Part shown: one piece after another, positions 2,224 through 50,427 of the stretch
Position numbering within the stretch: the first letter of the stretch is position 1
Layout of the letters: each line of letters starts with the position of its first letter
DNA from: a virus
Reading direction: 5' to 3' (one strand)
Length of the DNA: 64,000 bases
IMG/VR virus record: IMGVR_UViG_3300019776_000550
Span: 1-64,000 of that record
Notes under the pieces: model-generated
The model's input: the letters and a program-made list of their open reading frames with translations, nothing else
What the model was told of the DNA's origin: nothing
Database searches by the model: none
Program-made: the position numbers and the translations under genes

Positions 2224-3799
2224 GATAAACTTTTTCAATTACAAACCTATATCAGCACCTGAAAATCTTGATGCTTATAAATCAGCTATTGATAACGCTG
2301 TTAGTCAATATGATAAGAATGTAGAAGCGGCAGGTGTATTAGAAATAGCATTAAGTAAAATTAAAGCTTTACCTTCTGATGTTGAATATGTTAATGCTGT
2401 AAAACAAAAACTTCAAGATTCATTTAGTAATTTAGCTACTACAGTTCAAGGTAACAAAAGATGGGACTTAGCTAATGATACTCTTAATGAAATGAAGCTA
2501 ACAATTCTTAAAGACCAAAATTTACAAGGTATTCAAGATAGTTATAAGGGTTATCAAGATGAATTAGACCTTGAGCAGAAGTTAATGGCATCGGGTAAAA
2601 CACCTGTTAATTTAAATATAGTTGATTGGAAGAATCATCGCACTATTTCTCCTAATGGGGAATTGAATATTTATCGTAGCAAAGTTCAACCTAAAGCAGA
2701 TTACAATGCTGAAATGTTTGAAATTGCTAAAGTTCTTCAACCCGAAGTTATTGATTCTGCATTACAAGCGAGTGGTACAGAAGGATTCTTAATGTCTGTT
2801 AAAAAAGAACAGTTAACAGATGAAATGATTAATAATAAAATGCCTGAAATGTTTAGAACTTATGTTAATACAGATAGTTATAAACAAGAAAAAGTTCTTA
2901 AATTAAAAGAGTTAAATCAAAGAGGAATTACAGGACAAGAAGCTGAAAAACAAGCTGATTTAGAAATAGCAACTAATTTAAAAACTGTTGCTAAACTTAG
3001 AATGGTTAGTAGAGAGGATAAACAGTTTGTTCAAGACCCTAATTATACAAGAGAACAAAACTTACAAAACGAAATTATCAAAATCAAAGCTAAAGAAGAA
3101 GCAAAAAGAAAAGGTAATTTAGCTTATGAAGATGGTGTATTTCAACGAGGTGAAGGTTTCTCATTAGATGGTACTAACATTGATAGAGTAGTAAATATAA
3201 ACAGCAAGAAAATAGTAGATGGTTTAGCTGGTACTAATCTTGTTCCTGATAAATCTGAAGTTAAATTGCTTGATGGAACCGATTTAGATGATTATGATAT
3301 TGTTAAATTTATACCTAAGGGTCTGGTAACATCTAATGTATCAGGAAATGAAGATTTTGTAGGAGCTTTTGTTGGTGATTTACAAGTTAAAGATAGTAAT
3401 GGTAAAATAAAAACAGTAAGAGCTTATTCTAAAAATAGAAATAAAGATATTAAAGCTAGCTTTAATACATTATCAGCAGTTCACAAAGCTAGTATAAACT
3501 TACCCGAAGGCAGAGGACGAGTAGTAGATGATAGTTCTGGAGTTTTAGGTTCTCCTATATTTAAGATTGAAGTTGTAGGTAGAAAGAATGGAACTTTTGT
3601 AATTAAACCTGTTATATTTAATCCTCAAACAAGAGAAACATACTTACCTTCTAAATCAGATTTAGAATCATTTGGATTAAAACCTCAAATGACTTTAGAA
3701 GAATTAGAAAATAGAAGTCTTAATAAACTTGAACCTTTTGTTGAACAACTAAGTAAAAGTAATAAAAATTTAGTAGACGAATCATGGGAAAGCAACTAA
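2210..3799 (+). CDS. Putative virion cargo/ejection protein
   Basis: 529-aa helical ORF overlapping both neighbours, directly before the RNAP gene. Confidence 0.5.
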   Translation: MLPNKINFFNYKPISAPENLDAYKSAIDNAVSQYDKNVEAAGVLEIALSKIKALPSDVEYVNAVKQKLQDSFSNLATTVQGNKRWDLANDTLNEMKLTILKDQNLQGIQDSYKGYQDELDLEQKLMASGKTPVNLNIVDWKNHRTISPNGELNIYRSKVQPKADYNAEMFEIAKVLQPEVIDSALQASGTEGFLMSVKKEQLTDEMINNKMPEMFRTYVNTDSYKQEKVLKLKELNQRGITGQEAEKQADLEIATNLKTVAKLRMVSREDKQFVQDPNYTREQNLQNEIIKIKAKEEAKRKGNLAYEDGVFQRGEGFSLDGTNIDRVVNINSKKIVDGLAGTNLVPDKSEVKLLDGTDLDDYDIVKFIPKGLVTSNVSGNEDFVGAFVGDLQVKDSNGKIKTVRAYSKNRNKDIKASFNTLSAVHKASINLPEGRGRVVDDSSGVLGSPIFKIEVVGRKNGTFVIKPVIFNPQTRETYLPSKSDLESFGLKPQMTLEELENRSLNKLEPFVEQLSKSNKNLVDESWESN

Positions 3800-47298: not shown

Positions 47299-47369
47299 TT
47301 TTTCTTCACTCTGCTTTTTACAAGGACTTGTGACCTTCTATATTAAATATAGGTAGCATTAAAGAAAAA
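47299..47369 (-). ncRNA. Twister ribozyme (type P1, with P3)
   Basis: Minus strand: UUUUUCUU UAA UGCU AC CUAUA-UUUAA-UAUAG AAGG UCACAAGU CCUU GUAAAA AGCA GAGUG AAGAAAAA. P1, P2, P3 and P4 pair; both pseudoknots (CAC/GUG and AC/GU) pair. Confidence 0.9.
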
Positions 47370-48240: not shown

Positions 48241-48544
48241 TTTTTTTTTTTTGATTTAATTACACAGCTTAAAATAAAATAATTACAATTGTATGATTTA
48301 ATGCAAGTAGTTTGATTAACTTCTCGGAACTAACTTTCATAAGAATTTCTTCTTATAACCAGTACATCCTTTGCACATACAATTGTAATTAATTGTTTTT
48401 AAATGTTCGGTTGTGTCTGTTTTGTATATCACAACTTTATCTTACACATCTATTGAGAAACCTCCAATGTCTCAAATGTTTTTCAATGTGTAAACCAGAT
48501 GCTTTACTTCAAACATTTCAAAGCTTCAATGGAGTTTGTAAGCT

Positions 48545-48670
48545 TTGAATAACAATGACCTTTTAACTTACATGATTTTCTCATGTAAAACTTTTATAAA
48601 AGTAGTTTCAAGATTTATTTAGACACGTTTATCTCATCATCAGATTGTTTTCGTGTATATTTTAATTCAA
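48545..48670 (-). ncRNA. Hammerhead ribozyme, type I
   Basis: Minus strand: AACAAU CUGAUGA U GAGAU-loop-AUCUU GAAA C...GUC AUUGUU. Stem I AACAAU/AUUGUU extends via UUGAAU/AUUCAA. Stem-I bulge ACACG is complementary to loop-II CGUGU. Confidence 0.85.
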
Positions 48671-49030
48671 AACTTAATAATAAAACAACAACTCTAGGTG
48701 TACATATCATAGGTAGTGAGCCTATGTACATATTTTTCACAGTTGAGCGTTGTTGCTTTATTATCTACTTCTAATAACATCAGTTGTCTTTTGTTATTAG
48801 ATTCACCTTCTGTTCACTCTAAGCAAGTACGTGTTATTGTATTAACACAATGCGATATGAGCATAAACAGTTTTCATCTCCTTATTTAAGGGAAACTAGG
48901 TTAGTCAAAAAAAAAAGAAGTAGTTTATTCTTTCAGATGTCTTTTAAAAAGACGGAAAGATGGACACAGCTGACATTGTAAGCAGTCCTACTTCTTTTAC
49001 GTAATCCTACCATCATGTCACTAGGTAGGT

Positions 49031-49095
49031 TTCCCACTCAACCTTCTATCATTATGATAGCTAACCCTTGTGAAGTTAGAATGAGGTTTTAAGAA
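49031..49095 (-). ncRNA. Putative variant twister ribozyme (type P1, with P5)
   Basis: Minus strand: UUCU UAA AACC UC AUU CUAAC UUCACAAGG GUUAG CUAUCA-UAA-UGAUAG AA GGUU GAGUG GGAA. L4 has one extra U and P1 is short. Confidence 0.6.
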
Positions 49096-49149
49096 TCGTT
49101 AGTTTTATTCTGTTGCCAAGAAAAACTAACAAAAAACTCCGAATCTTAT

Positions 49150-49500
49150 TCAGTCGCAGAGTTCAGACCTAACACAACCTGAATGTGCAAATGGAAATCC
49201 ATCATACATTCCACCTCCGCAATGACTACAAGTAGTCTCTGCAAAAGTGTCATGGATTTTTTCCATTGCTTCATTGGTTGCTGGTTCAGACATCAACTCT
49301 AGCAATACTTTCCTTAAATCATAAGGATTATGGACTTTGTAAGTATTATGCTCACAATCCATAGCGTATGCAGAGTCAATATTCTCATGCGTTATGTTTA
49401 TACACTTATTATTGTAATAAGCTGATAAGCAATAAACATGAGGTAGTCTGTGACCATTAAAGTCTAAACCAAACTGCTCTACAAGGACTAATTCTGTCAT
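49150..49500 (-). CDS. Small early protein with C-terminal CxxC
   Basis: Likely start MTELVL at 49500; CSHC...H..C motif. Confidence 0.5.
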   Translation of the reverse strand: MTELVLVEQFGLDFNGHRLPHVYCLSAYYNNKCINITHENIDSAYAMDCEHNTYKVHNPYDLRKVLLELMSEPATNEAMEKIHDTFAETTCSHCGGGMYDGFPFAHSGCVRSELCD

Positions 49501-49642
49501 TGTTTTACAATTTAATTTAAAAAGTTTTTCTACTAACATAACTTCTAGTAGATAAAGTGATACTAATTACCTGTTGATTCTCAAGATGTATCAAGTCTTG
49601 ATTCCTTATACTCAGTTAGCAGGTTCTGAGTTTAGGATTGAG

Positions 49643-50008
49643 TTACAGAGTAACCACTTTCTCTCTCAAATTACGAGAGACATGGTTTCTCAATGTCTGC
49701 AAATCTGCCTGTTCTTTACAGACAAACTCTCCATTTGCTTCTCTAACAAGAGTAGCAATAATAGGAAAGTTCCCTGTAAGTCCATGCAGTGCTACTAATA
49801 CCATAGTAGCTAATGCAGACATTCCTGGAACTGCTACCGTAACAACAGTATTACTTTCAACCCCTAAAGATTGAAGATACTTTGTTACAGCTTCCAAATT
49901 TTCCCCAAATGGTTTTTCAGGGTTAATTTGAACAGTTCCATGAAACTCAAATCCTAATTCATCAAGACTCTTGTTAAAGTGTCCTGACAAGTTAAGTTTC
50001 TTGTTCAT
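49643..50008 (-). CDS. Csx15-like (type III CRISPR accessory, CARF-related) protein
   Basis: LNLSGH...PGMSALATMVLVALHGLTGNFPII...F...DLQTLR...R resembles my recollection of the Csx15 consensus (NFSH..PGL..A..LAELHGR.G.FP...NLQ..R). Likely ATG at 50008. Confidence 0.65.
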   Translation of the reverse strand: MNKKLNLSGHFNKSLDELGFEFHGTVQINPEKPFGENLEAVTKYLQSLGVESNTVVTVAVPGMSALATMVLVALHGLTGNFPIIATLVREANGEFVCKEQADLQTLRNHVSRNLREKVVTL

Positions 50009-50196
50009 TTTTAAGGAACGTAGGAAACTAATGTGTTCTATTCTAAGTAAGAACACTTAACTTGCAACCACTAAAGTAGGTTACTTTCACTTTGTAGCAT
50101 ATTTAAAAATCTGGAGGTAATGCTACTTAACCTCACTGTTAGCTTTTTATATAAAAAAGCTAAAAAAACAAAAACAAAAAGAAAAAAAAGCTAGGA

Positions 50197-50427
50197 TTAA
50201 CCTAGCTTGAATTTCTGGATGATAGCGTCTAACACGCTATCAGCAACACCGTAACCATTTGCGTATTCAATAACACTGACTTCTGCATCAGTGAATTTCT
50301 CCGCGATACATATTAACGTTTGCGAAGCTTTTGACAGCTTCTCGTAAATTTCGTCGGTGACTTCCACACCTTTTCTGCCCGATACCTTTCTATCGGTATC
50401 TTTAACATCTAACTTTATCTGAGCCAT
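50197..50427 (-). CDS. First gene of the leftward (early) unit, hypothetical
   Basis: 76-aa ORF with an overlapping terminator-like hairpin at its 3' end. Confidence 0.6.
   Translation of the reverse strand: MAQIKLDVKDTDRKVSGRKGVEVTDEIYEKLSKASQTLICIAEKFTDAEVSVIEYANGYGVADSVLDAIIQKFKLG

Follow-up and report, generated by a model that had tools for sequence, protein, structure and literature searches.

A 76-nt intergenic segment of a phage genome (49557-49632, minus strand; hereafter the core) is a discrete, self-contained sequence module, invariant, portable, and present as a single copy. Its edges agree to within 1 nt with those of a predicted fold in which two hairpins are crossed by two helices between their loops and a 3' tail. 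We tentatively read it as a structured RNA module of an early phage transcript, a reading to which we would give somewhat less than an even chance. The window that we analyzed is a 64,000-nt stretch of an IMG/VR virus record of 91,498 bp (G000), which has 99-bp direct terminal repeats and a GC content of 28.7% and codes for a phage DNA polymerase, an RNase H, and an exonuclease. The stretch is present in sequencing runs from freshwater, river, and wastewater samples. A Shine-Dalgarno-like motif precedes 1 of the 68 G000 ORFs of at least 100 aa, and the leaders are A-rich and almost G-free. Leaders that are A-rich, G-poor, and devoid of Shine-Dalgarno sites are typical of Bacteroidota hosts; judged from this pattern and from the GC content, the phage probably infects a member of the Bacteroidota.

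The core is placed in sense orientation between two co-oriented genes. Directly upstream lies a 121-aa gene (49643-50008, minus strand; stop codon 49645-49643) that matches the NCBIfam model CAS_Csx15 at 47.9 bits (cut-off 35), in agreement with a preliminary description of this region that had placed a Csx15-like gene directly 5' of the element. Its start was set by homologues, at the Met of MNKKLNLSGH, and three further viral contigs in IMG/VR encode relatives. A promoter-like site, TTGCAA-16-TAGAAT, is found just ahead of the gene at 50067-50040 (minus strand), and a strong terminator-like hairpin with a U-run (50188-50208, minus strand) closes the first leftward gene. Because the promoter-like site comes after this hairpin, the Csx15-like gene may have a promoter of its own.

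Downstream of the core is a 116-aa gene of unassigned family (49150-49500, minus strand), whose homologues (112-113 aa) begin at Met 49500. The encoded protein gave no Pfam, PHROG, or fold match. Its Cys/His-rich C-terminus carries an invariant motif, CSHCGGGMYDGFPF ... GCV.SELCD, which is probably metal-binding, and an AF2 model of moderate confidence (pLDDT 71) shows a four-stranded sheet and two helices. About 57 nt separate the core from AUG 49500, and the leader between them is rich in UUAAA; the segment directly ahead of the gene (49501-49528, minus strand) is A/U-rich, unpaired in folds, and a typical G-poor phage leader.

Only one other IMG/VR record contains the region, a 136-kb contig (G001). 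The two genomes are mosaic relatives that have in common a 944-nt block (50093-49150, 92.7% identity) and a few isolated blocks. Within the 944-nt block, none of the 76 positions of the core differs between them, nor does any of the 94 positions of 49642-49549, as compared with 64 of 801 sites (8%) in the flanking genes. Changes affected 29 of 448 sites of the Csx15-like gene (19 at third codon positions) and 35 of 353 sites of the downstream gene (20 at third codon positions), so that 39 of about 266 third positions (~15%) had changed. By our own arithmetic, 76 sites would all stay unchanged with a probability of about 2e-3 if they changed at the rate of all coding sites, and of about 6e-6 if they changed as fast as third positions. 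Constraint on the core is therefore stronger than on the neighboring proteins. Its GC content (35.5%) is also higher than that of the genome (28.7%).

The contexts in which the core occurs were examined by placing contigs of four public runs on the stretch. One contig of an RNA library (X17), 151 nt long, contains an exact match to 49557-49632 that is flanked on either side by unrelated sequence. In a DNA run (X12), one contig has a joint at 49558, where the core is connected to position 49251 within the downstream gene, and another (49199-49596) shows 22 differences, none of them above 49429. Two further X12 variants, of the 3' end of the Csx15-like gene, stop at 49602, one of them with 11 changed letters; if these are taken to be k = 31 unitigs, their last difference would lie at about 49633. 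RNA-library contigs from X15 and X17 cover the core, as contigs that carry no information on transcription, strand, or ends, and gaps in their cover are equally uninformative. Shares of words recovered from runs X12-X16 (0.64-0.91) would fit an intact core with changes only near the hairpin that follows it, if words are evenly spaced. All copies of the core that we found, in at least three contexts, are identical in stems, loops, and linkers and thus show no covariation.

The predicted fold begins with hairpin A (49610-49631, minus strand), a 6-bp stem ACUCAG/CUGAGU (49631-49626 / 49615-49610) with the 10-nt loop AACCUGCUAA, followed by hairpin B (49581-49601, minus strand), a 6-bp stem UCAAGA/UCUUGA (49601-49596 / 49586-49581) with the 9-nt loop CUUGAUACA. 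In helix 1, ACCUG within loop A (49620-49624, minus strand) is the exact complement of CAGGU in the tail (49569-49573, minus strand); in helix 2, UGAUAC within loop B (49588-49593, minus strand) is the exact complement of GUAUCA (49558-49563, minus strand), and the module ends 1 nt later. All 23 proposed pairs of the core are Watson-Crick by a script check, so they give no indication of strand, nor of RNA over DNA.

This fold had been put forward in the preliminary description, and the stem, loop-complement, and third-hairpin sequences that it listed all lie at its minus-strand coordinates, with pairs checked by script. Other details needed adjustment. The description treated ACCUG and UGAUAC as entire loops; their complementarity to the tail is exact, but they are parts of the longer loops given above. 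The UCCU/AGGA extension that it added to hairpin A is present, but it lies partly outside the conserved unit and is not kept in X17. A UCUACUA/UAGUAGA hairpin does follow, but as a separate repeated module and not as part of the same element. Its interpretation is partly supported. For the double pseudoknot there is independent support, in that the conserved unit begins and ends no more than 1 nt away from the outermost paired bases; the new ribozyme or nuclease-blocking element that it also suggested is a candidate function.

On the 5' side, a single nucleotide of the unit precedes stem A; on the 3' side, the unit stops 1 nt past GUAUCA, and the 24-nt tail beyond hairpin B moves together with the hairpins, as loop-tail pairing predicts. 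Because both edges agree with an independently defined fold and the tail travels with the hairpins, we regard this as the best support for the loop-tail model.

The plain nested minimum free energy (MFE) was unexceptional for a 146-nt segment (z = -0.5) and for the 76-nt core (z = -0.43). Hairpin A appeared in both MFE and centroid folds, whereas the nested MFE structure contained helix 2 and a CUUG/CAGG pairing in place of hairpin B, a competing alternative. We also used a home-made layered heuristic in which the sequence is folded, paired bases are masked, and the remainder is refolded, over three layers, so that crossing helices are permitted. This procedure returned exactly the four helices of the model, hairpin B included, at -16.2 kcal/mol, compared with -11.05 +/- 2.56 in dinucleotide shuffles (z = -2.0; 11 of 250 shuffles, or 4%, were as good). 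With the hairpins fixed, complements of both loops arose in 0.3% of trials when a 28-nt tail was shuffled (0.13% in the right order) and in 1.8% when an 81-nt tail was shuffled. Allowing for a post-hoc pick from 64 kb, the sequence evidence alone for the fold is suggestive.

Hairpin 3 (49529-49552, minus strand) is a repeated module distinct from the core. It consists of UCUACUA (49552-49546) and UAGUAGA (49535-49529), forming seven Watson-Crick pairs plus a G.U, with an AUG in its loop. It exists in three versions, one in the window and two in G001, the second G001 copy lying after the downstream gene. The versions differ in their stems (ACU/AGU, AUC/GAU, and AUU/AAU), with two pairs swapped on both sides, and all 24 pair cells are paired across versions; the conserved G.U can pair on the minus strand alone. 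The loop AUG (49539) is probably not a start codon: homologues that are more distant start at 49500, and what follows the second hairpin copy in G001 is a dead-end frame of 17 codons.

Several self-cleaving or structured elements lie in the vicinity of the core. The preliminary description placed the element beside known ribozymes, which is correct for at least one: a full-length twister-P1 ribozyme (Rfam RF03160, 58.9 bits, E = 3e-12) at 47303-47365, 2.2 kb downstream on the same (minus) strand. Standard annotation would miss it because its score is just below the gathering score of 67.2. G001 likewise has a twister-P1-like element near its Csx15-like gene and on the strand of that gene. In another related phage, G002, a type III hammerhead (L005 3860-3914, plus strand; RF00008, 44.6 bits, E = 7e-7) lies downstream of the Csx15-like gene, at a distance of about 1 kb and on the same strand.

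A further twister-like element, missed by Rfam, occupies 49031-49095 (minus strand) and has a counterpart in G001 (L007 6779-6844, plus strand) that is 82% identical. It sits just after the downstream gene in G000 and just upstream of the Csx15-like gene in G001. Its inner stem reads CUAAC/GUUAG in G000 and CUGCU/AGCAG in G001, and an extra hairpin also shows compensatory change; the invariance of the core stems contrasts with this behavior, which speaks against the structured-RNA reading of the core.

An intergenic block of 121 nt was also found nearby (48273-48393, minus strand). It is 99% identical to a block in G001 (L007 8422-8542), where it stands directly upstream of a tRNA gene (L007 8578-8651), and the flanks of the two copies are unlike. 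The block is closed by a 15-bp inverted repeat, AATTACAATTGTATG / CATACAATTGTAATT, and its center, GTTCCGAGAAGTTAATCA.ACTACTTGCATTAA, is present in G002 too (L005, about 2998-3032).

Searches for further copies of the core returned the known ones. A blastn search of GenBank phages gave no core match. In IMG/VR, a pattern built on the loops matched the G001 contig and, once by chance, the inside of a 1275-aa ORF; a pattern built on the stems found nothing beyond G001, and the 3' flank of the X17 contig had no match there. JGI metagenomes contained no copy detectable by 20-mers or by alignment of the downstream protein. A pattern spanning the core yielded 8 chance matches, devoid of other similarity, among the 185,579 species genomes of GTDB, and BLAST against 401 sampled Bacteroidota genomes gave short chance matches in unrelated coding frames. 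A covariance model (CM) built from two identical copies and run against five viral records recovered the known copies alone. A 17-nt exact match in G002, apparently inside a long open frame, was dismissed as chance. In relatives with Csx15-like genes that are 70% and 43% identical, the gene is followed by terminator-like hairpins and the core element is absent.

The core also did not fall into a described RNA family. Comparison of the window with Rfam 15 (4227 models) gave no match at gathering thresholds, consistent with the preliminary description, in which the fold was not recognized. At E <= 10 over 49300-49900 only chance-level matches appeared, the best of those overlapping the core being DUF3800-V, on the opposite strand, at 15.5 bits versus 37.4. 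No catalytic-core signature of known ribozyme classes was seen in the core, and none of the hammerhead, hatchet, twister-sister, pistol, or HDV-like models matched it.

Among known ribozymes, twister (clan CL00120) is similar to the core in its double-pseudoknot idea, size, and neighborhood, and an AAGG..CAAG..CUUG series gives it a superficial likeness to the P4/L4 part of the twister in this phage. However, the helix order of the core is different, and it is without the conserved L4 and GAG(U/G)G signatures. We rejected the core as a twister because it gave no RF03160, RF02684, or RF03154 match at E <= 10, though the real twister-P1 was recovered, and we rejected it as a twister relative because its alignment to four local twister-like elements scored about the same as shuffles (z from -0.98 to +0.5). 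Pistol ribozymes have a single pseudoknot, whose partner strand precedes the second hairpin. The core resembles pistol (RF02679) in that the loop of a 5' hairpin pairs with a downstream single strand, but both of its partners come after hairpin B, forming two crossing helices, and it has no CM match. HDV-like ribozymes, a class known in phages (PMC13635239), also fit two crossing helices into ~70-80 nt. Their strand order (P1-P2-P3-P1'-P4-P2') differs from that of the core (A5'-H1-A3'-B5'-H2-B3'-H1'-H2'), which again has no CM match.

RAGATH motifs are conserved structured RNAs located near twister and hammerhead ribozymes, and the approach that found them yielded pistol, hatchet, and twister-sister. 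Like them, the core is compact, conserved, and non-coding; it lies between short co-oriented genes in a phage region that also holds a twister-P1, a location of the RAGATH kind, and related phages hold twister and hammerhead ribozymes. The Rfam 15 models of RAGATH motifs, pistol, hatchet, and twister-sister did not match it, and with regard to covariation, by which RAGATH motifs are also judged, only identical core copies came to light, and IMG/VR, JGI metagenomes, GTDB, and GenBank phages added none that diverged. Bacterial self-cleaving ribozymes cluster, and this clustering has been used to discover new classes (PMC6765202). New small ribozyme and structured RNA classes have mostly been found as conserved elements adjoining known ribozymes, a search image that the core fits.

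Our preferred, if tentative, explanation is that the core is a self-contained structured RNA module with a double-pseudoknot fold that would act in RNA processing or stability. It would be part of an early polycistronic transcript, in the gap that separates the Csx15-like cistron from the one after it. Pairing of loop A with CAGGU and of loop B with GUAUCA would lock hairpins A and B into a compact knotted domain, and this domain may act in cis, marking for processing or stability a transcript that also bears self-cleaving ribozymes. With respect to its specific role, self-cleavage is our leading guess and the blocking or directing of a host RNase our second, although self-cleavage taken specifically is quite unlikely for this candidate. 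Equally unlikely is the proposal that the core might represent the first of a new small self-cleaving ribozyme class, or a new nuclease-stopping RNA knot, with a hairpin-hairpin-tail architecture and two crossing loop-tail helices, with which phages would cut or protect segments of the early anti-defense transcript, beside their twister and hammerhead ribozymes. Two features make the module worth attention in this respect: the edges of an invariant, portable unit independently mark out its predicted fold, and its position directly behind a phage Csx15-like gene means that it may help to express or protect an anti-signaling gene.

The strongest rival to the structured-RNA reading is a sequence-specific recognition or pairing element: a DNA operator read by a protein, an RNA site, a partner for pairing in trans, or a host-RNA decoy or mimic, such as an anti-defense RNA beside the Csx15-like anti-signaling gene. 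We judge this somewhat unlikely overall. That stems, loops, and linkers alike do not vary across three or more contexts fits it equally well, and a role of this kind would explain why the stems never vary. The all-Watson-Crick arms can also be described as DNA-type inverted repeats, 6-N10-6 and 6-N9-6, with a perfect palindrome, TCAAGACTTGA. In addition, phage-encoded RNA anti-CRISPRs (Racrs), which are solitary repeat units, offer a precedent (PMC10651486); like them, the core is a small non-coding phage element with strict sequence conservation, and it adjoins a candidate anti-defense gene. However, its loops of 9-10 nt are unlike those of typical CRISPR repeat hairpins, and no CRISPR-repeat-like internal repeat was seen in it. 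Neither the GTDB pattern search (185,579 species genomes) nor the 401 Bacteroidota genomes supplied a host counterpart, the core is single-copy, and the phage genome contains neither a second copy nor a complementary target. Promoter hexamers are likewise absent from the core. Lastly, recognition leaves the ordered complementarity of the tail to both loops unexplained.

An unlikely alternative is that the core comprises two ordinary mRNA hairpins, acting through RNase III or in stability, with a coincidental loop-tail match, and that it is conserved because an intergenic cassette was recently exchanged or spread by gene conversion. T4-type phages carry comparable promoter/stem-loop cassettes at module junctions. 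The genomes compared here are mosaic, G000 and G001 having only isolated blocks in common; another near-identical intergenic block stands in unlike flanks (48393-48273, 99%); and hairpin 3 is itself a repeated cassette. The nested fold is ordinary, and chance events at the 1-2% level are expected somewhere in 64 kb. Against this explanation, the core shows no change while the coding DNA on both sides of it, in the same exchanged block, differs at 8% of sites, so recency alone is insufficient. The 3' edge of the unit lies 24 nt past hairpin B, exactly where the second complement ends, and the core is single-copy, which repeated cassettes are not. Should the core turn out to be just a recognition site or a pair of plain hairpins, it would still stand as a clear example of an ultra-conserved cassette between genes of mosaic phages.

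Very improbable is a cis-regulatory leader of the 116-aa gene, either a riboswitch or an autogenous translational operator comparable to the phage T4 gene 32 pseudoknot operator, a folded domain upstream of a Shine-Dalgarno-less, A/U-rich landing pad: the ~57-nt spacing to AUG 49500 across an unstructured UUAAA-rich leader, the rarity of Shine-Dalgarno sites (1 of 68 ORFs), which would make leader structure matter, the presence of switch-type alternative pairings, and the joint travel of core, hairpin 3, and downstream gene in G001 are all in its favor, but the core is directly followed by unrelated sequence in X17 and joined to 49251 inside the gene in X12, and is therefore not tied to the leader or to the gene, no riboswitch family in Rfam matched, and family and fold searches with the 116-aa protein gave no functional clue.

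Other roles for the segment were considered and rejected. A tRNA, tmRNA, or attP site is contradicted by the lack of any tRNA or tmRNA in the window, of a host match in GTDB or the 401 Bacteroidota genomes, and, for attP, of any tyrosine or serine recombinase, integrase, or resolvase in the 91.5-kb genome. No sigma-70-type promoter hexamers were found in the core, and no Bacteroidota-type -7 motif was apparent by eye. Sequestration of a Shine-Dalgarno site by AAGGA was discounted because the phage does not use such sites. A small ORF starting from a UUG in the core continues differently in the window, G001, and X17, and the changes in hairpin 3 would be non-synonymous in it. As a signal for readthrough or frameshifting in the Csx15-like gene, the core was rejected because just 8 codons precede the next stop.

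Two observations concern the wider genome. About 900 nt of the early region (48241-49149, minus strand) are hairpin-rich and contain no minus-strand ORF of at least 60 aa. Outside the window, at G000 73886-76193, self-BLAST revealed three tandem-like copies of a 290-440-nt stretch that are ~73-75% identical.
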